A stretch of 64,000 nucleotides of DNA from a virus. Within the stretch, counting starts at the first letter, position 1. Each line of letters begins with the position of its first letter. The position numbers and the translations under genes were made by a program. The notes beneath the pieces are model-generated. The model worked only from the letters and a program-made list of their open reading frames with translations, was not told the DNA's origin and ran no database searches. The DNA is taken from positions 96,001 through 160,000 of IMG/VR virus record IMGVR_UViG_3300036985_009306; one strand, 5' to 3'. Positions 15,401 to 64,000 of this stretch are shown here, piece after piece.

Positions 15401-16693
15401 ATGCAAATCAAGACAGAAGTTATGCCAACACCCATTAAGTATGTTATTATACTTGATGAAAATGAAATTACTGAAAAAAAAGAAAAAACTTATGAGAAAA
15501 TTAAACCTTCAATAACTGTCAATGGTTTTCGTAAAGGTACTGTTCCACAAGATGTCGCTGAAGATAGATTGGGTGTCGAAAAACTTTATAAATCAATAAT
15601 TGATGAAGTATATGTAGAAGTTGCTTCTAATGAACCCATTGTGTCTTCAAAAGATTTTAAGTTTTATGGTGACTTAAAAAAGAAAGTACCATTTACTATA
15701 GAGTTCATTGCTGATGTAAAACCTAAAGTTGTTTTAGCTTCTTTTGATAAGATTGATGTCAAAATGCAATCTGTGAATATTACTGAAGAAGATTTGAAAG
15801 ACGAAATAAATGTAGAATTAAAGAAGAAACAGAAAATTGAAGATTCAACAAAAGAAATTTTAGATAATTTGGATGTTGCTATTATTGATTTTGAAGGAAA
15901 ACTTGAAGGGGAATGTGTTGCATTTAAAGGTGGTGTTGCTAAAGATTATCAAATTACTGTTAATGAGATTGTTAATGGTAGAAAGCAATTTGTAGGTAAT
16001 TTTGAAGATCAATTGGTAGGGATGAAAGTTGGTGAGTCTAAAGAAGTGAAAGTAAAGTTCCCAGAAGATTATAAACAAGAACTAGCAAACAAAAATGCAA
16101 TATTTAATGTTACTTTGAAGGCTATAAAATCTAAAATTATACCACTATATAATGAGTATTTTGTTAAAGAAAAGGGATTCAAATCGATCAAAGAATATGA
16201 AGAAAATTTAAAGAAAACTCTTTTAGAAAATGGAAAAAAGAGAGTATTAGATGATTTTAAAAAAGATGTTATTGTGCAAATTGTGAAATCTTCAGAGATT
16301 TCACCTATACCTGAAGAGATGGTAACAAGAGAAAATGAAAAAGAGTGGAATTCGTTTTTAAAAAGAATGAATAAGTCTGAAGAACAGATGTCTAAAGATC
16401 ATAAACTCACTAAACAGCATTTTTTTCATTCTAATACTTCGAGATCTTTAGACGTGATTAAGATGAGTTTAGTTATAGAGTCTATTTCTAATACTTATAA
16501 TATTGAAGCAACCGAACAAGATATGATACAATATGCTATAAAGAACAATATTTTAAGAGGTAAGACTGAAGAAGAGGTTAGAAAAGAACTTAATGAAAGT
16601 AAACAACGATATGATTTAGTTAAAACAGCAACAAAAAATGAAAAAACTCTTGAGTTTGTGTATGAACATTTTTTGGAATTGTATTGCCAATAG
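15401..16693 (+). CDS. tig: Trigger factor (ribosome-associated chaperone/PPIase), full length
   Basis: GFRKGTVP ribosome-binding signature; FKBP-like IIDFEG...FEDQLVGMKVGESKEVKVKFPEDY...AIFNVTLKAIK; helical C domain; 430 aa. Confidence 0.9.
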   Translation: MQIKTEVMPTPIKYVIILDENEITEKKEKTYEKIKPSITVNGFRKGTVPQDVAEDRLGVEKLYKSIIDEVYVEVASNEPIVSSKDFKFYGDLKKKVPFTIEFIADVKPKVVLASFDKIDVKMQSVNITEEDLKDEINVELKKKQKIEDSTKEILDNLDVAIIDFEGKLEGECVAFKGGVAKDYQITVNEIVNGRKQFVGNFEDQLVGMKVGESKEVKVKFPEDYKQELANKNAIFNVTLKAIKSKIIPLYNEYFVKEKGFKSIKEYEENLKKTLLENGKKRVLDDFKKDVIVQIVKSSEISPIPEEMVTRENEKEWNSFLKRMNKSEEQMSKDHKLTKQHFFHSNTSRSLDVIKMSLVIESISNTYNIEATEQDMIQYAIKNNILRGKTEEEVRKELNESKQRYDLVKTATKNEKTLEFVYEHFLELYCQ

Positions 16694-45721: not shown

Positions 45722-46084
45722 ATGACAACTCAGGTTGTTTTGTTAGGTTTGTGCTGCGTAATTGTGGTATTGGTGATTGTTTTTCGTAAAACTTCTTTTG
45801 TTAAGAAGTATTGGAGATACTCTTTAATTTTAATTCCTGCTATTTTGATTTTAATTTTGGTTATTTTGAAGGGTAATAAGGGCAATACTTCAACAAATTC
45901 TTCTGCATTAAAAGATTCTATTTCAGACATCAAAGGTAAGCTTAATGAGGTGAACACAATAGTACAAATAGAAGCAGCAATAACAAAGACAAATGATGAG
46001 CAAAAGATGCAACAGCTTAAAGAAGTGCAAAAGATACCTGATGATACTGAGAGAAGGAAAAAACTAGCTGAATTGATTGGGTAA
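45722..46084 (+). CDS. Membrane protein with coiled-coil C-terminus (i-spanin-like)
   Basis: Two N-terminal hydrophobic segments then a soluble coiled coil; AGGAGG SD. Confidence 0.45.
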   Translation: MTTQVVLLGLCCVIVVLVIVFRKTSFVKKYWRYSLILIPAILILILVILKGNKGNTSTNSSALKDSISDIKGKLNEVNTIVQIEAAITKTNDEQKMQQLKEVQKIPDDTERRKKLAELIG

Positions 46085-46136
46085 ACAATGAATTCTAAGA
46101 TTAATTATTAGAGTTTATAATTGAAAGGAGCGACAA

Positions 46137-46409
46137 ATGTCAACTTGGGTAGTTCCAATCGTGGTTTGTTTTTTAGTAGGTGCATTTTCTTTCTTCATGG
46201 GGCGGTGGAGTCGCCGTTCTAACACTAAGGCAGGCGCTCCTTCCACATCAACCAACAGTGATTATGCGGCGTTGGCACAGGCGTGGCGCAAACTTGCTGA
46301 TGAGTCAAGTGACGCACGGTATAGTGCTCATCTTTATGGTTGTGCCGAAGATTTGTGCCAACTCAATTCGGCCAAAGCTCCGAACTCGCATTTTGCGGCG
46401 ACTGTATAG
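46137..46409 (+). CDS. Cassette-like small ORF reading through attC-like element A
   Basis: AAAGGAG SD; N-terminal TM; ...STSTNSDYAALA...; stop inside the right arm. Confidence 0.5.
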   Translation: MSTWVVPIVVCFLVGAFSFFMGRWSRRSNTKAGAPSTSTNSDYAALAQAWRKLADESSDARYSAHLYGCAEDLCQLNSAKAPNSHFAATV

Positions 46410-46410
46410 G
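46252..46410. repeat. attC-like imperfect inverted repeat A (degenerate)
   Basis: ACATCAACCAACAG left end; GTTGGCAC / GTGCCAAC arms; ends ACTGTATAGG, 8 nt before the next ATG. Confidence 0.45.
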
Positions 46411-46417
46411 GACACAA

Positions 46418-46630
46418 ATGGATTCTAAATACGTAGTTCATCTTCTAAAACAACTAATTGTGAAGCACGGGCAGGTTCGGCACAACGAAGCATTGGAATC
46501 CATTTGTGCAGAACTGAAGGGGCACTGCAAAACAGTCCGGCGAAACGCCCATACAACAGACAAAGTGCGCCATATAGATGACGTGTTCCTTCGACCGAGA
46601 GCTTCGGGCAACTATCGAAAAATATTCTAA
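46418..46630 (+). CDS. Cassette-like small ORF
   Basis: ATG follows the element A right end; contains an orphan left arm GCCCATACAACAG. Confidence 0.35.
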   Translation: MDSKYVVHLLKQLIVKHGQVRHNEALESICAELKGHCKTVRRNAHTTDKVRHIDDVFLRPRASGNYRKIF

Positions 46631-46871
46631 TGATGGTTTGTTGTCGGCAGGAGAAATTGTTGCCGTATTGGAGGTTGTAAAACATGCTACCATTCACGCT
46701 GCTGAGAATGCGGCGGCTGACACTGAGGTAGACAATTTTACATCCACCAACAGCGCTATGGATGCCATTGCCGAACTCGCCGAAAAGTTCATTGTGTCAA
46801 ATAAATGTGACGAAAGTGTTTCTATAATGCTGCGGTGCTTTGCGGAGTATGTTCGGCAACAGCACCAGTAG
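46578..46871 (+). CDS. Cassette-like small ORF reading through attC-like element B
   Basis: ...FTSTNSAMDAIA...RQQHQ*; stop lies in the right arm. Confidence 0.5.
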   Translation: MTCSFDRELRATIEKYSNDGLLSAGEIVAVLEVVKHATIHAAENAAADTEVDNFTSTNSAMDAIAELAEKFIVSNKCDESVSIMLRCFAEYVRQQHQ

Positions 46872-46885
46872 CGCGAACGTTGGCC
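46745..46885. repeat. attC-like imperfect inverted repeat B
   Basis: CCAAC...GTTGG ends; GCGCTA/TAGCGC and TTGCCGAAC/GTTCGGCAA arms. Confidence 0.7.
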
Positions 46886-46938
46886 AAAATAAACCGCGTT
46901 GGGAACAGATATTATAGCCCGGCGCAGGAGAAAACAAA

Positions 46939-47265
46939 ATGGAATGCAAATTTACCCAGGGCTTTGTGACAGCGTGTGCGGCAACGTTGCGTAATCATGG
47001 TTGTGATACCATTGTCGCGGATACTCTCGTTTGTTGTGGCCCAGTGTCAGTGGATCAGTATCGGAAGTTGGGTGTTGAGGAATACGACATTGATATTTTG
47101 CGACCTGTTATCAAAGAAATACAAAGGAAGAAAAGATGCGCCAGGAGTACACTGCGGAAACGCAGTTTACATCGGCCAACAGCTCAAGCATGGCAATCGG
47201 ACGGTACTGTGGTGCCTGCTGACGGTTACGGCCAGCATAGTCATCCTGATTTTTTCTCAAATTAA
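46939..47265 (+). CDS. Cassette-like small ORF
   Basis: AGGAG SD; GC-rich; runs into element C. Confidence 0.5.
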   Translation: MECKFTQGFVTACAATLRNHGCDTIVADTLVCCGPVSVDQYRKLGVEEYDIDILRPVIKEIQRKKRCARSTLRKRSLHRPTAQAWQSDGTVVPADGYGQHSHPDFFSN

Positions 47266-47296
47266 CGGCGCCACTCTGATATCCAGATGTTGGTGC
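47174..47296. repeat. attC-like element C
   Basis: ACATCGGCCAACAG left end; right arm CACTCTGATATCCAGATGTTGGTGC nearly identical to the right arm of element F at 62757. Confidence 0.55.
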
Positions 47297-47312
47297 AAGA
47301 AAGGAAATACAA

Positions 47313-47564
47313 ATGGTATTAATTGACGGCAAAGAAGTAGATGTTAAAGAAGTCGATGCTGCAAAACATGGATTTATTGGGACGTTTCGTAAACCGTTTG
47401 AACAAATCAAAAGACCACTTTACGACATAATTTTTTGCAGTTGCGGATTGAATGTTTGTGGTGGTCACTATGACCTTTATCAACATTGGCAAATGGGGCA
47501 TTTTGACTTGTTGCAATACAAAACAATAGAAGATGTGCCAACGGAAATTAAGGAAGTGGCATAG
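47313..47564 (+). CDS. Cassette-like small ORF with Cys/His motif
   Basis: AAAGGA SD right after the GTT of element C; CSCG...HWQMGH. Confidence 0.55.
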   Translation: MVLIDGKEVDVKEVDAAKHGFIGTFRKPFEQIKRPLYDIIFCSCGLNVCGGHYDLYQHWQMGHFDLLQYKTIEDVPTEIKEVA

Positions 47565-47569
47565 ACATC

Positions 47570-47659
47570 TTACAACAGCAGCATAAAATAACCGCCGACT
47601 GGTGGAATGATTGGAGTACCATAGATGATGAGCCATTTGACATTTGACAACTGTTAGGA
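47570..47659. repeat. attC-like element E (weak arms)
   Basis: Stop-ACATCTTACAACAG left end; ends CTGTTAGGAG, which also supplies the SD of the next gene. Confidence 0.4.
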
Positions 47660-47665
47660 GATTGT

Positions 47666-48172
47666 ATGAAAAAATTTTTTTCACTAGTTTGTTTGTTAAT
47701 GATATCATGTGCATCTACAAAACCTGCTGTAAACGAACAACATTTGAAATATTCATATTTACCTCCTAAATTAAATATTGATTCATTGATGCCAGTCAAT
47801 AGTGTTGTAGACACAAATCTTCATGATTTTACTTCTGTTGCAATTGATTCTGGAAAACTAGTTACTATTAATAAAGATACTCTTAAACTTCATCCTGGAG
47901 TATTGATAAGTGAAAAAAAAGCAGCTCTATTTATTTATTATAAATCAAGTTATGAATATTTATATAAAAAAGCTATGTTGACAAATATATTGTATTCTGA
48001 TTATTACGACAAATCTGTTGATGCTGAGAAAATTTATCAAAATGATATAATAAATTTGTCTAAAAAAGCTGAAAGAACTTGGTTGGAAAAAAATATGGTT
48101 TATTTTGGGTTTATAGCAGGTATTGCTACATGCATTCTTACTGAATATGCGGTGATTAAAACATCTAAGTAA
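47666..48172 (+). CDS. Lipoprotein with C-terminal hydrophobic segment (spanin-like)
   Basis: Lipobox MKKFFSLVCLLMIS|C; WLEKNMVYFGFIAGIATCIL. Confidence 0.5.
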   Translation: MKKFFSLVCLLMISCASTKPAVNEQHLKYSYLPPKLNIDSLMPVNSVVDTNLHDFTSVAIDSGKLVTINKDTLKLHPGVLISEKKAALFIYYKSSYEYLYKKAMLTNILYSDYYDKSVDAEKIYQNDIINLSKKAERTWLEKNMVYFGFIAGIATCILTEYAVIKTSK

Positions 48173-52168: not shown

Positions 52169-52624
52169 ATGATACACCTTTATCTTTTGTCAGGAAAAAA
52201 AGTCCAGCAACATTTAACTGTCGATGGTTGGTTAGAATCTCAATCCCATCCAAATTTGTCAGAACCACAACTAACTGGAACTCATTTACAATACTCATTT
52301 TGTTCTCTATGTCATGGTACAGGTGTTGATCCGGTACAAGAAGGCGAATTGACAAGAATATGTAGACGATGTCAAGGAGCAACATATGAAACAGTGAGTG
52401 TGGCTCCACATATTGGCGGCTATAGAGACGTTGCTACCACATTGGATATAATAGGAAAACCCTGGATTGAATGTTTCAAAATTACACCAGAATATAAAAA
52501 TCTACCTGCTGAAATTCAACATCAAGCATTAGATGGATTGAAACAATGGTGTTACGAAGAAGAACAAAGAATAAATGCAGAAGATCCTGTAAAAACAAAT
52601 AATAAAATAAAGTTCATATGTTAA
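52169..52624 (+). CDS. Hypothetical protein with DnaJ-type CxxCxGxG Zn motifs
   Basis: CSLCHGTG...CRRCQGA; AGGAG SD. Confidence 0.55.
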   Translation: MIHLYLLSGKKVQQHLTVDGWLESQSHPNLSEPQLTGTHLQYSFCSLCHGTGVDPVQEGELTRICRRCQGATYETVSVAPHIGGYRDVATTLDIIGKPWIECFKITPEYKNLPAEIQHQALDGLKQWCYEEEQRINAEDPVKTNNKIKFIC

Positions 52625-53177
52625 AAAAATTCTTTTGCAATTAAAAGAATATGTAGACGATGTCAAGGAGCAACAGTGAGAGTACCTATTATGTCAACTT
52701 TAACAAATAGAAATGGTAGACAATATGATTTAAATGATTTAGAACTGTCAACTTTAACAAATAGAAATGGTAGCCAATATGATTTAAATGATTTACAACC
52801 TGGTAGAGTTGAATTCTTAACAAATGGTACACCTTTACAAGTTACTGGTCCTGGTATCTTACAAGTTCCAACTTCCGAGAATGAAATTACAACCGAATTA
52901 AGAGAAAATATGGATGAAATTCATAAAGACATAGAATTTGTGCATGAAAACAACAAAATGAAGTTTATACTGACTGGGCAAACTGGAACTCATTTACAAT
53001 ACGGTGTTGATCCGCCGGGTCCCTCACTTGCTTTTTGCTCAATGTCCCTGATAAGAAGCAGGTACAATTCGGCCTGTGTGGTACAAGAAGGCGGATTGAC
53101 AAGAATATGTAGACGATGTCAAGGAGCAACTTTAACTAAGAAATGGTAGACAATATGATTAAATGATTTACAACCTG
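52274..53177. repeat. Patchwork of dispersed and tandem direct repeats
   Basis: AACTGGAACTCATTTACAATAC at 52274 and 52981; AAGAATATGTAGACGATGTCAAGGAGCAAC x3; 54-bp tandem at 52692/52746 with a third partial copy near 53127. Confidence 0.85.
52691..53149 (+). CDS. Mosaic hypothetical ORF built partly from repeated segments
   Basis: STLTNRNGxQYDLNDL x2; C-terminus copies the preceding gene. Confidence 0.35.
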   Translation: MSTLTNRNGRQYDLNDLELSTLTNRNGSQYDLNDLQPGRVEFLTNGTPLQVTGPGILQVPTSENEITTELRENMDEIHKDIEFVHENNKMKFILTGQTGTHLQYGVDPPGPSLAFCSMSLIRSRYNSACVVQEGGLTRICRRCQGATLTKKW

Positions 53178-53326
53178 ATGGTAAGTTTAGTTCTAGTATT
53201 AGATTTTGGCTGCACAATTCAAATTGACAAACCACTATCTATAGATTACTCCTCAATATAGAAAACAATTACCAAAAACTCAATATTGAATGCTGAAATT
53301 CCTCTTAAAAAATAAATAAAAAAATA

Positions 53327-53357
53327 ATGTACATTTTAAAAAATAAATGATATATTA
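53327..53357 (+). promoter_or_regulatory. Putative promoter of tRNA array 1
   Basis: TGTACATTT...TATATTA with the same spacing as the copy at 63557. Confidence 0.6.
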
Positions 53358-53381
53358 ATGATATACAATAGGAAAAGGACT

Positions 53382-53519
53382 ATGAGACTTCACCTAACTT
53401 CATCAAAAAAGATATTATGGCAGCAACTGCCTGATATGGGTGTCAATAATAACTCCCATAAAACACTGTCATGTTTGTCGAGTCTCTATTTTAAAGTGAG
53501 ACAAGAAGGTGAAGCTTAA
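53382..53519 (+). CDS. Putative attenuator leader peptide (45 aa) MRLHLTSSKKILWQQLPDMGVNNNSHKTLSCLSSLYFKVRQEGEA
   Basis: GGAAAAGGA SD; the last codons and stop overlap the antiterminator strand; codons match the downstream tRNAs. Confidence 0.7.
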   Translation: MRLHLTSSKKILWQQLPDMGVNNNSHKTLSCLSSLYFKVRQEGEA

Positions 53520-53587
53520 AGTTTAAAAAGAAAATATTTTTAAAAAGGCTCACCTTCAAAAAAAAGAAGATGAGCCTTTTTGATTTT
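53388..53587 (+). promoter_or_regulatory. Transcription attenuator 1 (1:2, 2:3 and 3:4 helices)
   Basis: CTTCACCT(53388)/AGGTGAAG(53507); GAAGGTGA(53505)/TCACCTTC(53550); terminator AAAAAGGCTCACCTTC-A8-GAAGATGAGCCTTTTT. Confidence 0.75.
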
Positions 53588-53599
53588 AGAGATATACTC

Positions 53600-53673
53600 G
53601 CCTCAATAACTCAAATGCTTAGAGTACTTGTTTCTTAAACAAGGAGTTGAAGGTTGAAATCCTTCTTGAGGCA
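53600..53673 (+). tRNA. tRNA-Lys(CTT)
   Basis: GCCTCAA/TTGAGGC acceptor; CTTGT-TTCTTAA-ACAAG. Confidence 0.8.
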
Positions 53674-53690
53674 AAATAAAGGAGAAACAA

Positions 53691-53763
53691 GCCGCTTTAG
53701 CTCAGTTGGTAGAGCAATGGACTGAAAATCCATGTGTCACCCGTTCAATTCGGGTAGGCGGCA
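53691..53763 (+). tRNA. tRNA-Phe(GAA)
   Basis: Canonical cloverleaf; ATGGA-CTGAAAA-TCCAT. Confidence 0.92.
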
Positions 53764-54027
53764 TTTTGACTAGAGAAAAATATGTTTGAATGTGAAACAA
53801 TTTTGAAACAATTGACAAAAAATCCAGATACAGAAATAATTCATAATCATCAACAATGTAATTCATATATAGAAAAGATGTTGACTGAACGAGAATTAAA
53901 ACGTAGATGATCTCGAAGGTGACGAGTTAACTATAAATTTTCGTACATATAAACCATAGGATGAAATTTTGAATAACAAGAAAGGGACCCGAAATGAACG
54001 ACAAAGATGGCAAATCTGACAAACTAA

Positions 54028-54116
54028 GGGTCCGTCACTTAGAGGCCGATAGTACCAAATTTTTAATTTGGAGAGTGACAAAAACTCCATCGCAGGTTCG
54101 AATCCTGCCGGGCCCA
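54028..54116 (+). tRNA. Atypical tRNA, anticodon TTT (Lys), with a long variable arm
   Basis: GGGTCCG/CGGGCCC; CCAAA-TTTTTAA-TTTGG; GAGT-GACAAAA-ACTC extra arm; GCAGG-TTCGAAT-CCTGC. Confidence 0.7.
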
Positions 54117-54136
54117 TTTTAAAAGAGAAAATAATT

Positions 54137-54430
54137 ATGTTTAAAAAATACACTAAAGAAAATTTATCAACAATGGACAATGGTTTCTATATAATGAAAT
54201 CAGATCCTAATTCTGAAACAGTGGCCAAAAATCCTAATGATGAAATTGTTGAACTAATAAATGGTCAAATAATCAATGACATCAAACTTGACATAAGCAA
54301 TGTAAATTATGAATTAATACAATTAAAAGGAGACTTTAAAAAACTTCCACATAATGGTGGAGGACCAATCAAGTTTGAATTAAATGGAAAAATAGTTGAT
54401 ATTGACAATATAAAAAGTTCTTTGAAATAA
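54137..54430 (+). CDS. Hypothetical protein within the tRNA array
   Basis: ATG 54137 directly after the tRNA. Confidence 0.5.
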   Translation: MFKKYTKENLSTMDNGFYIMKSDPNSETVAKNPNDEIVELINGQIINDIKLDISNVNYELIQLKGDFKKLPHNGGGPIKFELNGKIVDIDNIKSSLK

Positions 54431-54432
54431 AT

Positions 54433-54505
54433 AGACCCATAGCTCGTTGGTTCAGAGGCCTTCTTTACAAGTAGAATGTCGGGAGTTCGACTCTCTCTGG
54501 GTCTA
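54433..54505 (+). tRNA. tRNA-Val(TAC), imperfect anticodon stem
   Basis: AGACCCA/TGGGTCT; TTTACAA loop; GGGAG-TTCGACT-CTCTC. Confidence 0.6.
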
Positions 54506-54512
54506 AATTTAT

Positions 54513-54585
54513 ACGGACATAGCTCAATGGCTAGAGCAATGGTCTCCAAAACCATAGGCTGTGGGTTCAAGTCCTACTGTCCGCG
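54513..54585 (+). tRNA. tRNA-Trp(CCA)
   Basis: ATGGT-CTCCAAA-ACCAT; G73. Confidence 0.88.
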
Positions 54586-54593
54586 AAAATTAT

Positions 54594-54605
54594 GTTCTTT
54601 GACAT
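54594..54605 (+). promoter_or_regulatory. boxA-like antitermination site
   Basis: GTTCTTTGACAT just after tRNA-Trp. Confidence 0.5.
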
Positions 54606-54634
54606 ACTTGGTTATTTAGCAAGTTTCTTAATTC

Positions 54635-54726
54635 GGAGATTTGTCCGAGTCTGGCTTAAGGAGCCGCACTGCTAATGCGGTGAAGTTGTTATACAACTTC
54701 CAGTGGTTCAAATCCACTAATCTCCG
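54635..54726 (+). tRNA. tRNA-Ser(GCT)
   Basis: CCGCA-CTGCTAA-TGCGG; long variable arm; G73. Confidence 0.9.
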
Positions 54727-54742
54727 CTTTTTAAAGAGTTAT

Positions 54743-54828
54743 GCCCAAATGGTGGAACGCTAGACACGCTGCGCTTAGAACGCAGTATCCGAAAGGGTGT
54801 GGGAGTTGAAATCTCTCTTTGGGCACCA
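54743..54828 (+). tRNA. tRNA-Leu(TAG)
   Basis: CTGCG-CTTAGAA-CGCAG; variable arm; encoded CCA. Confidence 0.9.
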
Positions 54829-54844
54829 AAAATTAGGAATAAAC

Positions 54845-55597
54845 ATGACAAAAGAACAAATGTATCAAGACCTTTTGTCTGTTGATACATCAAAACTTGG
54901 TTGGATTTCTAAACTTTCAAAAAAATGGCATATGTCACATACATGTGCAACTAAGAAAGTGTGTAAATATTTTCCAGAAATTATTGAAAATAGTTATAAA
55001 AGAAAGTCAAAAAAGAAATATTGTCCCAAATGTAATTCTTATTTTCATAAATCATTTTTTAATAAACATAAATGCAAAAACTATTTAGAAAAATATAGGA
55101 GAAGCAGAAGAAAACTTCATACAAGAAGATCATTAATCGTTGATAAAGACATTCTTGAAAAATCTGTGAGTAAAGCTGAATCATTTAATCAAGTAATAAT
55201 AGATTTAAAACAACAAAATATTTCTATATCATTTAAAAGACTTTTCAAACTGATAAAATTTTATGAACTTTCTACTAAACATTTTCTTGGAAAAAGTTCG
55301 TTAAAAGCAAGAAAAAAACTTGAAAAAGAAGAATTTATTTTAGAATGTTTAACAAACAATTCAAAACATGCAGCTTATAATATAAAATCTAAGATTTTGC
55401 ATTTTGAAATTTTAGAATATATTTGTAATAGCTGTGGACAAAATTCTGAATGGAATAATAAAAAACTTGTATTACATTTACATCATAAAAATGGTAATGA
55501 CAATGACAATAGATTAGATAATCTAGAATTTCTTTGTCCTAATTGTCATTCACAAACAGAAACATATTGTAGGTCGAAATCAAAAAAATTGAAATAA
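54845..55597 (+). CDS. HNH homing endonuclease within the tRNA array
   Basis: CNSCG...LHLHHKNGNDNDNRLDNLEFLCPNCHSQT. Confidence 0.88.
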   Translation: MTKEQMYQDLLSVDTSKLGWISKLSKKWHMSHTCATKKVCKYFPEIIENSYKRKSKKKYCPKCNSYFHKSFFNKHKCKNYLEKYRRSRRKLHTRRSLIVDKDILEKSVSKAESFNQVIIDLKQQNISISFKRLFKLIKFYELSTKHFLGKSSLKARKKLEKEEFILECLTNNSKHAAYNIKSKILHFEILEYICNSCGQNSEWNNKKLVLHLHHKNGNDNDNRLDNLEFLCPNCHSQTETYCRSKSKKLK

Positions 55598-55610
55598 ATA
55601 CTAAATTATT

Positions 55611-55684
55611 GGCCGAGTGATGGAAACGGAATACATGCGATATTCAAAATATCGATTTTAAGAGTTCAAATCTCTTCTCGGCTA
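55611..55684 (+). tRNA. tRNA-Leu(CAA) lacking the long variable arm
   Basis: GGCCGAG/CTCGGCT; CGATA-TTCAAAA-TATCG; 5-nt variable loop. Confidence 0.75.
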
Positions 55685-55688
55685 TTAA

Positions 55689-55773
55689 GCCCAAGTGGTG
55701 CAATTGGTACCCACAACGGTCTTAAGAACCGTCGAAAGAAATTTCATTGCCAGTTCAAATCTGGCCTTGGGCA
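55689..55773 (+). tRNA. tRNA-Leu(TAA)
   Basis: ACGGT-CTTAAGA-ACCGT; variable arm. Confidence 0.85.
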
Positions 55774-55774
55774 A

Positions 55775-55786
55775 GTTCTTTGAAAA
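55775..55786 (+). promoter_or_regulatory. boxA-like antitermination site
   Basis: GTTCTTTGAAAA, matching the rrn boxA form seen in Bacillus and many other bacteria. Confidence 0.55.
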
Positions 55787-55788
55787 TT

Positions 55789-55932
55789 AAGTTGTATCCT
55801 TTAACACTTAATGCTTACATTAAATTTTGTGGTTCGACTCCACATTCCCCCAATTATGGGGGAATAGCCAAATGGTAAAGGCAATAGACTATAGATCTAT
55901 CAAAAACAGCATTATCAACTTGGATACAACTT
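55789..55932 (+). ncRNA. Circularly permuted tRNA-like RNA (T arm and acceptor 3' strand precede the acceptor 5' strand, D arm and anticodon arm; anticodon ATA)
   Basis: TGTGG-TTCGACT-CCACA-TTCCCCC-AATTAT-GGGGGAA-TAGCC...GGC-A-ATAGA-CTATAGA-TCTAT enclosed by TAATGCT/AGCATTA and AAGTTGTATCC/GGATACAACTT. Confidence 0.75.
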
Positions 55933-55939
55933 ATTTTAC

Positions 55940-56012
55940 ACTAATGTAGCTCAATTGGTAGAGTAATGGGATCATACCCCAGAGGTTAAGAGTTCGAATC
56001 TCTTCATTAGTA
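55940..56012 (+). tRNA. tRNA-Met(CAT) with initiator-like three G-C anticodon-stem pairs
   Basis: ACTAATG/CATTAGT; GGG-ATCATAC-CCC. Confidence 0.75.
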
Positions 56013-56230
56013 TTTTAAATTACAAGATTTAGATATATAAACAATCTGAGGAGGATTGTTTATGGATAATCTTGAATTAAGAAGGAATGGTAAATTTACA
56101 TGTTTAGATTGTCAGAATAACAAATCTGAGTTGTGTAAGACATGTAAGAATTGGGACCAATTCGATTTAAATGAAGAAGTCTCAAAATTGCTGTATGAAG
56201 AAAAGAGTTTAAAGAGAGATAAAAAATAAC

Positions 56231-56317
56231 GGTGGGATGGCAGAGTCTGGTTTATCGCACCTCGCTTGAGACGAGGATCTCCGAAAGGGGACGCAAGTTC
56301 GAATCTTGCTCTCACCG
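56231..56317 (+). tRNA. tRNA-Ser(TGA)
   Basis: CCTCG-CTTGAGA-CGAGG; variable arm; G73. Confidence 0.9.
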
Positions 56318-56398
56318 CTTAAAATTATGTTAAAAAAATATTTTTGTTCTATTTGTAATTGGGATTTAACAAATTCTGGTATGAGATATTCAAATTAA

Positions 56399-56493
56399 GG
56401 AAGAGTGTCCGAGTTGATCTAAGGAGCTAGTCTCGAAAACTAGTGAAGGATGAAATAAAGCCTCCGCAGGTTTAAATCCTGTCTCTTCCGCCA
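56399..56493 (+). tRNA. tRNA-Ser(CGA)
   Basis: CTAGT-CTCGAAA-ACTAG; variable arm; G73 CCA. Confidence 0.88.
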
Positions 56494-56500
56494 TTATGAT

Positions 56501-56572
56501 GATCCTGTAGCCAAATGGTAAGGTGCTGGTCTGCAAAACCAGAATAGGTCGGTCCGATTCCGCCCAGGATCT
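56501..56572 (+). tRNA. tRNA-Cys(GCA)
   Basis: CTGGT-CTGCAAA-ACCAG; U73. Confidence 0.88.
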
Positions 56573-56593
56573 TAAAATTAAAAGGGATTAACT

Positions 56594-56824
56594 ATGGAAG
56601 ACAAAGATTATGTTTTGACAATCAGGGTACCTTTCAAAGCAGCTGACGATATAGATGCTAGAGAGTATGCTAAGTCTATATTTTCTATAGATTCTCCTAA
56701 TGGAGTGAACTTAAAATTGCAGGAGATTTTTGTAAATAAAGCACCAAGAGGAGTGAATTTTTTGTCCGATTATGAGATTGCAGGATTGTTAAATACAGAC
56801 AAAGGAAAGAAAACAAGCATGTGA
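56594..56824 (+). CDS. Hypothetical protein
   Basis: AAGGGA SD; 76 aa. Confidence 0.55.
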   Translation: MEDKDYVLTIRVPFKAADDIDAREYAKSIFSIDSPNGVNLKLQEIFVNKAPRGVNFLSDYEIAGLLNTDKGKKTSM

Positions 56825-56927
56825 TAATATTGTTGTTAAAAACAACGTGTCTGCTTGGATGAAGAAGTTTTGGATATTGAATGTGTATATGAGAGAGGAT
56901 TAGACACTTTCTAATGGGAGGCATACT

Positions 56928-57200
56928 ATGTTAGACAAAAGACAAGAAGCCGTTTCTATTGCAGAAGAAGTGTTGAACGTTATTCCTAAGGAAGTTACAT
57001 ATAAAGTGCCTGGTCTGACTATGGAGGATATTAAAATTACATATAAAGTGCCTGGTCTGACTATGGAGGATATTAAAATTACATATAAAGTGCCTGGTCT
57101 GACTATGGAGGATATTAAAATTACATATAAAGTGCCTGGTCTGACTATGGAGGATTTAAGTGTTGTTAAAGTTTATGGTGACTGTAGTTTAGATGGCTAA
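56928..57200 (+). CDS. Hypothetical protein with a 14-aa tandem repeat
   Basis: GGGAGG SD; (I/V)TYKVPGLTMEDIK repeats; 3' end overlaps tRNA-His. Confidence 0.45.
   Translation: MLDKRQEAVSIAEEVLNVIPKEVTYKVPGLTMEDIKITYKVPGLTMEDIKITYKVPGLTMEDIKITYKVPGLTMEDLSVVKVYGDCSLDG
56995..57155. repeat. Perfect 42-bp tandem repeat, about 3.8 copies
   Basis: TTACATATAAAGTGCCTGGTCTGACTATGGAGGATATTAAAA at 56995, 57037, 57079 and partial at 57121. Confidence 0.95.
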
Positions 57201-57251
57201 AACATTGCGTTGTGACCGCAAAAATCGGCAGTTCAAGTCTGCTCAGTCACC
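57177..57251 (+). tRNA. tRNA-His(GTG)
   Basis: G-1/C73 signature; TTGCG-TTGTGAC-CGCAA. Confidence 0.88.
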
Positions 57252-57305
57252 CTCTCATTATGAAAAAATATTATACAGTCTACAAAACTAAGCCGCTAAT
57301 TTTCT

Positions 57306-57395
57306 GGGTCAGAGGCAACTATCGGGTGTGTTGCGCAAGACTGTAGATCTTGTCCCGTAGGGTAAACATTGGAGGTTCAACTCCTTCCTGGCCCA
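57306..57395 (+). tRNA. tRNA-Tyr(GTA)
   Basis: CAAGA-CTGTAGA-TCTTG; variable arm; A73. Confidence 0.85.
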
Positions 57396-57412
57396 TTTTG
57401 GAGAAATTTAAA

Positions 57413-58006
57413 ATGTCATCTGTAATAGTTTTGACCAAAACATATGCATATTGGGGAGAGAGATCTCTTGAAGATGCAATTAGATTGTACTTTCGTGGAA
57501 AAGCTGAGATTTTAAAAGCTGATGAAAGTAGATTGATAAAAGCAGGAATTAATAAAAATGGAATTATATTGAAAATGCCTGCACCTTTAATACTTAGATT
57601 GCTTGAATTTACAGGTATTTATCACACAAAAACAAAAATTAAATATTCAAAAGAAGCAGTTTGGAAGAGAGATGATAATTATTGTCAATTTTGGCATAGA
57701 GATGAAAAAGGAAAAAAGTTTAAATATAAATGCTCACAAGATGATAGAACTATAGACCATTTGATTCCTAAAAGTAGAGGTGGAAAACGTAATGACTTTT
57801 TAAATTGTGTGACTGCTTGTAGACATTGTAATGAAAAGATTAAAGGTAACAAAACTCCTTTAGAAGCAGGTCTTATATTAACTAAACTTCCAGAAATACC
57901 AAAGTTTAGACGGGGGGATATGATTATACTGACTTTTTCATTTAATCCTTCAAATAAAGCTCATCAAGCTCTTAGAGAGTTAATCCCTCAATTAATTAAG
58001 CTGTGA
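57413..58006 (+). CDS. HNH endonuclease (McrA-like)
   Basis: KEAVWKRDDNYCQ...TIDHLIPKSRGG...NCVTACRHCN..KGNKTPLEAG. Confidence 0.88.
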   Translation: MSSVIVLTKTYAYWGERSLEDAIRLYFRGKAEILKADESRLIKAGINKNGIILKMPAPLILRLLEFTGIYHTKTKIKYSKEAVWKRDDNYCQFWHRDEKGKKFKYKCSQDDRTIDHLIPKSRGGKRNDFLNCVTACRHCNEKIKGNKTPLEAGLILTKLPEIPKFRRGDMIILTFSFNPSNKAHQALRELIPQLIKL

Positions 58007-58142
58007 GAAGATGATTACATCTACTGGTGTGATATCGAGTTAACGACTTCCTGTTTCATAGAAAGAGCTTGACTTTGATGATCTAAAAATAATTTATAAA
58101 AACAATTGAAAAGTAGATAGAATATTTTGGCTGTTTTTAGAT

Positions 58143-58361
58143 TTGATGTCGATAGTCTCTAATATGAGAATTCTAGTTTTACATGGAATATGTGGCGACA
58201 GATATTTCTTAATAAAGGATGATGCTCACCTTTTTAGTGTTTGTATAGCTATTATTAAGGAGAGACTTAATGATGGTTATCGGTATGTTGCTGAAGAGCC
58301 TCTTGGATTGACAAAACAACAGATCGATAATCTTCCTTCTGGTAAAAGGGACATACTATGA
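58143..58361 (+). CDS. Hypothetical protein
   Basis: Small ORF. Confidence 0.35.
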   Translation: MMSIVSNMRILVLHGICGDRYFLIKDDAHLFSVCIAIIKERLNDGYRYVAEEPLGLTKQQIDNLPSGKRDIL

Positions 58362-58546
58362 AAGTCTTTCCATTGGGAACTAAAAGAGAAGAAGAAACAC
58401 AAATGATTACTATTCGTTTGAAGTGTAATCACAAAGGTTGCAGAAAAACTATACAAGGAGTTGAAGGATATAACGGTCATTTTTATTATCGTAGAAAATT
58501 TGCAGCTGATCTAAGAAATCAAGTATGGGTTTGTGATGAACATTAA
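58358..58546 (+). CDS. Small Cys/His-motif protein
   Basis: CNHKGC...WVCDEH. Confidence 0.45.
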   Translation: MKVFPLGTKREEETQMITIRLKCNHKGCRKTIQGVEGYNGHFYYRRKFAADLRNQVWVCDEH

Positions 58547-61265: not shown

Positions 61266-62273
61266 ATGCTTAGAAAACTAGCTTCAATTCGAAAAGTAAG
61301 AGACATCAAACCAATAAAAGATGCTGATGCAATTGAACTTGCAATTGTTGATGGATGGCAAGTAGTTGTAAAAAAGGGACAATTTAAACTTGATGAACTT
61401 GTAGTCTATGTAGAAATAGACTCATTTTTGCCAGAACGCTCAGAATTCGAGTTTTTAAGAAAAAGCTCACATCGAACAATGGCGGACGGTTCAACAGGAT
61501 TTAGACTTAAAACTGTTCGTTTGAGAGGACAACTTAGTCAAGGTTTGATTCTTCCTCTCAATGAAGTCAATCTTTCTAATGTCAATCTGGGTGATGAAGT
61601 TACAGAGCAACTGGGAATTAAAAAGTATGAACCACCTATTCCAGCTTGTCTTGCAGGAGAGATGAGAGGAGCTGTTCCAGGAGAAATTCATAAAAGTGAT
61701 CAAGAAAGAATTCACAATTTATTAAACTATTGGACAATCTATAAAGATTTAGAATTTGAAGAAACAGAGAAGCTCAATGGTGCTAGTATGACTGTTTATC
61801 ACAATCAGGGAGATACCGGAGTTTGTGGCCATAAATGGAATATGAAGGAAACTAAGGACAACACCCTTTGGAAGGTCTCTAGAAGGCTCGAATTAACAGA
61901 GAGATTAACTAAATTAGGATTGAATCTAGCACTTCAAGGTGAGATCATTGGAGAAGGTATTCAATCTAATTGGTACAAAATAATTGGACAAACTTTTAAA
62001 ATCTATGATATCTGGGATATTGACAATCAGTACTATTTAACAAACAAAGAACGATTAGATATCATTCAAAAACTTGGATTTGATCTTTCTATTCACGTAC
62101 CTATTCTAAATGCTCATATGAAGATTTTTGATATAATTAAAGATGTTAATGAATTTTTAGAATATTCAACAGGAATTTCAAAATTAGCCAATGTGCAACG
62201 AGAGGGTCTTGTTTATAAATCAACAGAAAGAGTTGGACCTCAAACTATTTCTTTTAAAGTATTAAAAGAGTGA
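61266..62273 (+). CDS. ATP-dependent RNA ligase (DRB0094/Rnl2-like family)
   Basis: RKLASIRKV..IKPI.DADAIE...GWQVVVKKG...EIDSFLP; TEKLNGAS; LQGEIIGEGIQ; REGLVYK; ISFK. Confidence 0.9.
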   Translation: MLRKLASIRKVRDIKPIKDADAIELAIVDGWQVVVKKGQFKLDELVVYVEIDSFLPERSEFEFLRKSSHRTMADGSTGFRLKTVRLRGQLSQGLILPLNEVNLSNVNLGDEVTEQLGIKKYEPPIPACLAGEMRGAVPGEIHKSDQERIHNLLNYWTIYKDLEFEETEKLNGASMTVYHNQGDTGVCGHKWNMKETKDNTLWKVSRRLELTERLTKLGLNLALQGEIIGEGIQSNWYKIIGQTFKIYDIWDIDNQYYLTNKERLDIIQKLGFDLSIHVPILNAHMKIFDIIKDVNEFLEYSTGISKLANVQREGLVYKSTERVGPQTISFKVLKE

Positions 62274-63555: not shown

Positions 63556-63586
63556 TTGTACATTTGCAATAAAATGTATTATATTA
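63556..63586 (+). promoter_or_regulatory. Putative promoter of tRNA array 2
   Basis: TTGTACATTT...TATATTA; same motif and spacing as 53327. Confidence 0.6.
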
Positions 63587-63594
63587 GATGCATT

Positions 63595-63660
63595 ATGATA
63601 ACAAAGCTTTTTCAACAGCCGCAACCACAACCCAAACACCTGAGGAGTGAAGCCTGTTGA
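63595..63660 (+). CDS. Putative attenuator leader peptide (21 aa) MITKLFQQPQPQPKHLRSEAC
   Basis: CAA CAG CCG CAA CCA CAA CCC run; stop TGA just past the antiterminator strand; downstream tRNAs are Pro and Gln. Confidence 0.75.
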   Translation: MITKLFQQPQPQPKHLRSEAC

Positions 63661-63720
63661 AATAAGTTGATATAGATTTTTCAAAAGGCCTCACTCGAAA
63701 GTTTGAGGCTTTTTTGTTTT
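63610..63720 (+). promoter_or_regulatory. Transcription attenuator 2 (1:2, 2:3 and 3:4 helices)
   Basis: TTTCAACAG(63610)/CTGTTGAAA(63654); GAGTGAAGCCT(63645)/AGGCCTCACTC(63686); terminator AAAAGGCCTCA...TGAGGCTTTTTTGTTTT. Confidence 0.78.
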
Positions 63721-63723
63721 AAA

Positions 63724-63796
63724 CAGGGCGTATTTCAGCTAGTAGAATTCTTGATTTGGGATCAAGAGGTCGGGAGTGCAAACCTCCCCGCCCTGA
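63724..63796 (+). tRNA. tRNA-Pro(TGG)
   Basis: CAGGGCG/CGCCCTG; CTTGA-TTTGGGA-TCAAG; A73. Confidence 0.85.
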
Positions 63797-63802
63797 AATT
63801 GA

Positions 63803-63851
63803 CAGGTAGTAGCTCAATTGGTAGAGCACCGCATGAGTCTCTCCTGCCTGA
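63803..63851 (+). pseudogene. Internally deleted tRNA (Pro-like acceptor; anticodon arm and most of the T arm missing)
   Basis: CAGGTAG/CTGCCTG acceptor, intact TAGCTCAATTGGTAGAGC D arm, only about 15 nt between the D arm and the 3' strand. Confidence 0.65.
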
Positions 63852-63870
63852 ATTTTATAATACAGTTCTT

Positions 63871-63944
63871 GGGTGTGTCTTCCAGTAGGTTTAGGAAACT
63901 AGATTTTGAATCTAGCAACCAAGGTTCAAATCCTTGCACACTCG
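63871..63944 (+). tRNA. tRNA-Gln(TTG)
   Basis: GGGTGTG/CACACTC; CTAGA-TTTTGAA-TCTAG; G73. Confidence 0.85.
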
Positions 63945-64000
63945 ATTTTAATAGTTATGTCGATACTGTCTAAATTTTTGCCAAAATTCAATGATTTGGT

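Follow-up and report, generated by a model that had tools for sequence, protein, structure and literature searches.

In the trp, his and thr attenuators, a ribosome that stalls within a short leader frees strand 2 of the transcript and thereby permits readthrough into the genes downstream. The signal is charged tRNA, as is established for the trp and his attenuators. Some enterobacterial attenuators are multivalent: the ilvGMEDA leader senses isoleucine, valine and leucine, and the thr leader senses threonine and isoleucine. T-box riboswitches also sense tRNA and thereby control readthrough. The tRNA arrays of phages such as T4, T5 and vibriophages are seen as codon-supply or counter-defence devices; current proposals are that phage tRNAs serve codon supply, replace host tRNAs that have been degraded, or allow escape from anticodon nucleases. 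A survey of the full-text literature, with subscription journals outside its scope, turned up no account of leader-peptide attenuation acting on tRNA genes, whether in phages or in other systems, and no report of a codon-matched leader or attenuator controlling a phage tRNA array.

The locus considered here belongs to an uncultured phage whose IMG/VR record comprises 192,143 bp with about 30% G+C. The stretch analysed, referred to as the window, is 64,000 nucleotides long (bases 96001-160000 of the record) and contains all the tRNA genes of the phage. We consider, with good confidence, that a ribosome-mediated (leader-peptide) attenuator precedes an array of 15 of these genes and couples transcription of the array to the decoding speed of the array's codons. 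The features discussed below are collected in Table 1. Elsewhere in the window, the phage encodes a full-length trigger-factor homologue (15401-16693; Trigger_N, FKBP_C and Trigger_C domains) with RecA-like, DnaB-like and SbcC-like genes nearby, and at 46001-48000 the G+C content is locally raised to 0.41, against about 0.30 in the remaining window. Two adjacent paralogous ORFs (52169-52624 and 52676-53149) share a Cys-rich C-terminal motif, and the second contains an internal tandem repeat; both lack a PHROG family and IMG/VR relatives.

Table 1. Coordinates of the leader units and associated features. Positions without a prefix are those of the window.
Feature	Position	Strand	Details
Promoter-like site	53328-53356	+	-35 TGTACA 53328-53333, N17, TG 53348-53349, -10 TATATT 53351-53356; A-tract upstream
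Shine-Dalgarno stretch, purine-rich	53370-53379	+	SD-to-ATG block kept in L007 and G001 type-1 leaders
Leader ORF, first unit	53382-53519	+	ATG at 53382, 45 sense codons, TAA 53517-53519
Strand 1 (protector), codons 1-5	53382-53396 (extendable to 53377)	+	Pairs with strand 2
Cognate-rich cluster, 14 codons (codons 26-39)	53457-53498	+	12/14 read by array tRNAs
Small hairpin upstream of strand 2	53482-53502	+	In minimum-energy fold
Strand 2, antiterminator 5' strand	53504-53518	+	Last four codons and first two stop bases
Intrinsic terminator	53542-53586	+	Strand 3 53547-53557, A8 loop, strand 4 53566-53576, T-tract 53577-53581
Regulated array, 15 tRNAs	53600-57396	+	HNH endonuclease genes and small ORFs interspersed
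Array tRNAs			Lys CTT, Phe, Lys TTT, Val, Trp, Ser GCT, Leu TAG, Leu CAA, Leu TAA, Met, Ser TGA, Ser CGA, Cys, His, Tyr
Long-arm tRNA with UUU anticodon	54028-54116; L248 10788-10876 (-)		
Second unit	63557-63716	+	Promoter 63557-63585, leader 63595-63660, strand 2 63644-63663, terminator about 63684-63716
tRNA-Pro(TGG) and tRNA-Gln(TTG)	63724-63945	+	Downstream of second unit
G001 third leader	L234 2370-2600	-	
L257 leader units	L257 3150-3335 and 5800-5990		

The original prediction described a Shine-Dalgarno site and a 45-codon ORF whose last codons and stop lie over an antiterminator strand, mutually exclusive helices 1:2 and 2:3, and a U-tailed terminator directly before tRNA-Lys. This anatomy is confirmed, and every other statement that the prediction made about the sequence also held on recheck. 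The unit begins with a sigma-70-like, extended -10 promoter motif (TGTACA-N17-TATATT) whose strict form occurs only twice in the 192-kb genome, at 53328 and 63557, in both cases before a tRNA cluster; the motif also precedes the homologous leaders in two related phages, L007 and G001. The first gene of the array, tRNA-Lys(CTT), begins 19 nt after the terminator. ARAGORN detects 14 of the 15 array tRNAs; tRNA-Val(TAC), at 54433-54505, is detected by Rfam alone (39 bits) and brings the total to 15. Within the array, HNH homing-endonuclease genes are found at 54845-55597 and 57350-58006. In L007 and in the third unit of G001, an HNH gene lies between the terminator and the first tRNA. One 89-nt array tRNA combines a long variable arm, the class-II shape typical of Ser, Leu and Tyr tRNAs, with a UUU (Lys) anticodon; its copy in G001 is 90% identical, and the differences include compensatory changes within the anticodon stem. 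This may be a Lys tRNA that resists nucleases or acts as a decoy, or it may be charged with another amino acid.

Under standard wobble, the array tRNAs can read 22 codons, as predicted, and each of the 15 has a cognate codon in the leader. When codons are drawn according to the phage's own usage, with a cognate share of 0.37 taken from its long ORFs, such complete coverage has a probability of about 1.5e-4 (100,000 simulated leaders). The cognate-rich cluster near the end of the leader, likewise part of the prediction, is also unexpected by chance (P = 0.005 for at least 12 cognate codons in some 14-codon window). When all six reading frames of the genome are considered, 138 ORFs have 40-50 codons, and a single one of these, which may be the leader itself, covers all 15 tRNAs. 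Cognate codons in the leader as a whole amount to 22 of 44, which is only marginally above expectation (P = 0.06), and about half of its codons are not read by any array tRNA. Because nearly half of its codons are unserved by the array, the leader is not a pure sensor of the array's own tRNAs. Most array tRNAs are sampled by one or two leader codons, as opposed to the runs found in classical attenuators.

The full-length transcript is predicted to fold into helix 1:2 and the terminator, with an energy of -67 kcal/mol (z = -6.4 against shuffled sequences). Helix 1:2 (-15.3 kcal/mol) and the competing helix 2:3 (-16.4 kcal/mol) each outperform 2000 of 2000 random windows of the locus (P = 0.0005). 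The terminator has a core energy of -13.5 kcal/mol, or -21 kcal/mol with its A/U extension, and is among the few strong terminators of the genome. The stem core of the small hairpin upstream of strand 2 recurs in all three type-1 leaders, as we term the first-unit leader and its homologues in L007 and G001; this is possibly a pause hairpin, a role which is inferred.

The effect of a translating ribosome was modelled by folding the transcript as far as strand 3 while a ribosome footprint of 30 nt was moved along the leader codon by codon. In this model, the antiterminator forms when codons 1-37 occupy the A site, and is lost from codon 38 to the stop. The first 12 codons of the cognate cluster therefore occupy the 3' end of the permissive span; codons 38 and 39 fall outside it. 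Equilibrium folding of the truncated transcript without a ribosome yields helix 2:3 and not 1:2, so that an off state in the absence of translation would have to be kinetic. The protector helix 1:2 is significant in the first unit and in the type-2 units described next; no such significance is seen in the L007 or the G001 type-1 leader.

A second unit lies in the same genome, before tRNA-Pro and tRNA-Gln genes. Its leader has 21 codons, including seven consecutive Gln/Pro codons, and its helix 2:3 (-20.3 kcal/mol, P = 0.0005) has a strand 2 which spans the stop. In the masking model, the Gln/Pro run (codons 7-13) coincides exactly with the last permissive codons. The ATG stands 9 nt past the -10 box without a Shine-Dalgarno site, and in the homologous type-2 leaders the distance is 6 nt (G001) and 10 nt (L007), suggesting that type-2 leaders may be leaderless mRNAs, or nearly so. 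A tRNA-like remnant is present between tRNA-Pro and tRNA-Gln (63805-63850). Given this remnant, and since the corresponding site of G001 has three Pro tRNAs and two Gln tRNAs, the array in the window looks reduced.

Both units may be set against the systems described above. The closest resemblance is to the multivalent ilv and thr leaders, together with the pheST and hisS leaders of translation-apparatus genes. As in the ilv and thr operons, a promoter-proximal short ORF contains codons for several amino acids, a terminator competes with an antiterminator, and the position of the ribosome would decide between them. Here, however, the unit is phage-encoded, its targets are tRNAs and not biosynthetic enzymes, its product would feed back directly on the sensor, and the sampling extends to as many as ten amino acids and 15 isoacceptors, usually with a codon or two apiece. 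The 1:2, 2:3 and 3:4 logic, with a terminating ribosome at the leader stop masking strand 2, is shared with trpL, hisL, pheL and leuL, to whose layout the second unit comes nearest, its Gln/Pro run lying inside strand 1; the differences are that the proposed signal is the supply of the tRNA itself, and that type-2 leaders are apparently leaderless or almost so. Modelling of such classical single-amino-acid attenuators is available (PMC1183508). The pheST operon, with its pheM leader, and hisS of Firmicutes, whose leader-peptide attenuator has been described (PMC2965389), also attenuate a component of the translation apparatus linked to the sensed codons, but the target is the synthetase for one amino acid, and no tRNA genes are involved. 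The genomic setting, a large phage with homing endonucleases in its tRNA array and an RNA ligase nearby, is like that of the T4, T5 and vibriophage arrays.

In terms of the properties that define a leader-peptide attenuator, the first unit has a promoter followed by a short ORF with start signals (conserved in L007 and G001), an intrinsic terminator between leader and regulated genes, an antiterminator which excludes the terminator and which a ribosome at the leader end would mask (the masking resting on the folding model), and regulatory codons that correspond to the regulated product, as seen in the complete coverage of the array, in the cognate cluster and in nine units of four genomes. Support for a protector helix 1:2 is divided, as described above. 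A departure is that the targets are not biosynthesis or synthetase genes, the downstream genes being tRNAs. Novelty thus concerns the target and the breadth of sampling, not the mechanism.

Relatives of the locus were reached via an RNA ligase gene situated between the two tRNA clusters (window 61266-62273; a PHA02142 OB-fold domain and an RNA_ligase domain). In L007, a JGI contig, the ligase is 67% identical, synteny is retained, and homologues of both units are present. A 216-kb phage, L257, with a ligase 49% identical, has two units whose leader sequences are unrelated. One, rich in Thr, Asn, Asp, Pro, Gly and Ala codons, stands before exactly those six tRNAs; in the second, Leu and Arg codons are abundant, and Leu(TAA), Arg(TCT) and Leu(TAG) follow. 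No significant antiterminator was found in either L257 unit by the random-window test. The presence of the same ligase synteny in L007, and of the ligase inside the L257 array, suggests a tRNA repair or protection module. The RNA-ligase neighbours P0005, P0007, P0012 and P0026 have no tRNAs within 10 kb, and no leader unit was seen in a GC-rich 229-kb phage (L255) that does have a tRNA array.

The 424-kb IMG/VR phage G001 was located by its Gln/Pro pattern. A 16-base version of the pattern proved too loose, with at least 117 chance matches, and a tightened version matched G001 alone in IMG/VR and the metagenome set. Three units are present in G001, two of them with the promoter motif. Of 46 codons in its 47-codon type-1 leader, 32 are cognate to an array of 19 tRNAs (His, Tyr, Lys, Phe, Leu, Val, Trp, Ser, Met, Thr and Cys), all of which are covered; an ACG codon in this leader matches a Thr(CGT) tRNA, and the window lacks both. 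The G001 type-2 leader precedes three Pro tRNAs, two Gln tRNAs and one Arg(CCT) tRNA, and an uninterrupted run of nine Gln, Pro and Arg(AGG) codons in it covers 6/6. The third leader is unrelated, being rich in Thr, Ile, Asn, Arg, Glu, Asp and Gly codons, and 18 of its 24 codons are cognate to the Thr, Glu, Ile, Met-or-Ile2, Asp, Asn, Gly and Arg tRNAs that follow. G001 also encodes a TAG suppressor tRNA with anticodon CTA (G001:C1:1278-1350; L239), and may therefore recode TAG.

Other searches recovered little. Leader-peptide searches, whether by word index with the window peptide or a three-sequence profile or by exhaustive HMMER, found only the L007 leader, which is the sole leader with an existing gene call; a low-complexity 626-aa protein matched in this search was disregarded. 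Near and distant DNA searches with the leader region found no relatives among phage records, and none were found in IMG/VR for an upstream 157-aa protein or for the exact terminator pattern, or among phages for a 550-aa protein of the window. Nine matches to a pattern joining the Shine-Dalgarno site to the ATG included none followed by a tRNA. When the RNA ligase and RecA were used in tblastn searches, only cultured phages below 45% identity were returned, and no laboratory relative could be identified.

It had been proposed that leader codons should covary with array content in relatives, and this check was passed. In nine units from four genomes, leaders are enriched for the amino acids of the tRNAs that follow (per-unit binomial P of 5e-6 to 0.07 at the amino-acid level). 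Leader-by-array matrices are diagonal in all four genomes, such that each leader fits its own array better than the others, and leaders inside one genome have nearly disjoint amino-acid compositions. Homologous units are not independent, and the independent lines of evidence are the five leader classes. A short leader in L003 has no codon match to its three detected tRNAs; it is treated as a decayed or incompletely sampled unit, not as support.

These comparisons bear on the possibility of a real leader-peptide attenuator which reports general translation speed or amino-acid supply, or which times array expression, its codon match arising only from a need to sample codons that the phage uses. 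Such a device would account for the many leader codons that the array does not read and for the marginal overall enrichment. A ribosome that senses charged tRNA, moreover, could not distinguish starvation from tRNA loss. A speedometer, however, would not need leaders which differ sharply within one genome and each fit their own array, nor would it need the Gln/Pro and Gln/Pro/Arg runs that occupy exactly the permissive positions before Pro, Gln and Arg tRNAs; for these reasons we find it unlikely.

In 8 of the 10 units examined, the antiterminator complement is located at or near the leader stop, and over the ten units the antiterminator test gives a Fisher P of about 1e-16. Across the three closest genomes, each of the eight units has its strand 2 within about 20 nt of the leader stop, where a ribosome at the stop would cover it. 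That the ORF and terminator instead form an independent small gene or small RNA, with the array expressed constitutively, through leakage or other promoters, and with a merely coincidental codon match and helices, is hard to reconcile with this placement, with the full coverage of the array, or with five unrelated leader classes that each fit their downstream tRNAs. The promoter motif, too, is confined to positions before tRNA clusters, and searches beyond these loci turned up neither a protein family nor a homologue. In favour of this explanation, the amino-acid sequence of the peptide core is conserved, as might be expected of a functional micro-protein, the very stable fold would suit a structured RNA, and no expression data exist; even so, we regard it as very unlikely.

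The pattern of selection on the leaders is informative. The homologous type-1 ORFs have 41 codons in L007 and 47 in G001, and all three peptides share a His..Leu-Ser-Cys-Leu-Ser core whose codons vary synonymously, in places even switching between the two codon families of Leu or of Ser. Retention of the core despite synonymous change indicates selection on the translated product or on tRNA identity. Towards the C-terminus the three peptides diverge, and the conserved GGUG core of strand 2 does not even fall in the same frame; the regions still pair with strand 3 despite these changes. When the three sequences are aligned, pairing reaches 84% in helix 2:3, with two compensatory pairs, and 87.5% in helix 3:4, with four, compared with 34-59% in slid registers. 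This pattern is consistent with a leader that is translated and ends in an RNA switch.

Alternative helices and strong structure do not in themselves require a ribosome, and a translation-independent RNA switch, responding to uncharged tRNA in the manner of a T-box or to a bound protein, with the open frame incidental, also has to be weighed. T-boxes, like the present units, sense tRNA status and place a terminator/antiterminator switch before translation-related genes; they differ in that uncharged tRNA is bound directly, via a specifier codon and a T-box bulge, with no ORF needed. An Rfam scan of positions 52500-58500, with E values up to 1, found no match to a T-box riboswitch (stem I, specifier loop and T-box sequence) or to any other cis-regulatory family. 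A single RNA could not plausibly bind 15 different tRNAs, and the stop codon always lies over or beside strand 2. Start signals and frame are moreover conserved in three genomes, where synonymous changes keep the peptide core, and we consider a switch of this kind scarcely credible. A structured non-coding RNA, suggested by the long closing helix of the fold, was also dropped because the frame, the Shine-Dalgarno site and the peptide core are conserved.

The attenuator reading had been put forward in the original prediction and is supported as a mechanism by the anatomy, the non-randomness of the helices, the compensatory changes and a codon match repeated in relatives. The parts and their geometry, the complementarity of the strands, the compensatory changes and the codon match are shown by the sequence analysis. 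Translation of the leader, stalling and readthrough are inferred, in the absence of expression data, and a 3' end at the terminator has not been observed.

In the proposed mechanism, host RNA polymerase would initiate at the strong sigma-70-like promoter, and a ribosome loading at the Shine-Dalgarno site would trail it through the 45-codon leader. Should decoding be fast, the ribosome would reach the last codons or the stop (53517) and cover strand 2, allowing the 3:4 terminator to form; the transcript would then end near 53581, leaving the array silent. Should aminoacyl-tRNA be scarce for any codon up to about 37, the ribosome would stall upstream and leave strand 2 free to pair with the emerging strand 3, in which case no terminator would form and the polymerase would enter the 15 tRNA genes. 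The newly made tRNAs are expected to restore decoding and so close the switch, a negative feedback. Without translation, helix 1:2 would sequester strand 2 and the terminator would again form.

The trigger is not resolvable from sequence: anticodon nuclease, host tRNA decay, codon demand and amino-acid starvation cannot be told apart. A wider reading is that huge phages split their tRNA genes into regulons, each with a codon-matched leader, and that the regulons jointly serve as an inducible counter-defence. Cleavage or decay of a set of host tRNAs, through anticodon nucleases or phage-induced shut-off, would then stall the matching leader and switch on only the replacement set, and the RNA ligase beside the arrays and the conserved long-arm UUU tRNA may belong to the same tRNA-protection module. 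Taken as a whole, this reading is possible but remains speculative, and we hold it only tentatively.

Why phages possess tRNA genes, and when these are used, is an open question, which the attenuator, if correct, would turn into a testable circuit: the phage would measure the decoding of exactly those codons that its tRNAs read, and make the tRNAs on demand. Leader-peptide attenuation would be extended from enzyme and synthetase genes to RNA genes, with direct feedback of the product on the sensor, and a single leader would be able to monitor ten or more amino acids. The units are compact, at about 250 nt, and could act as natural sensors of tRNA availability.
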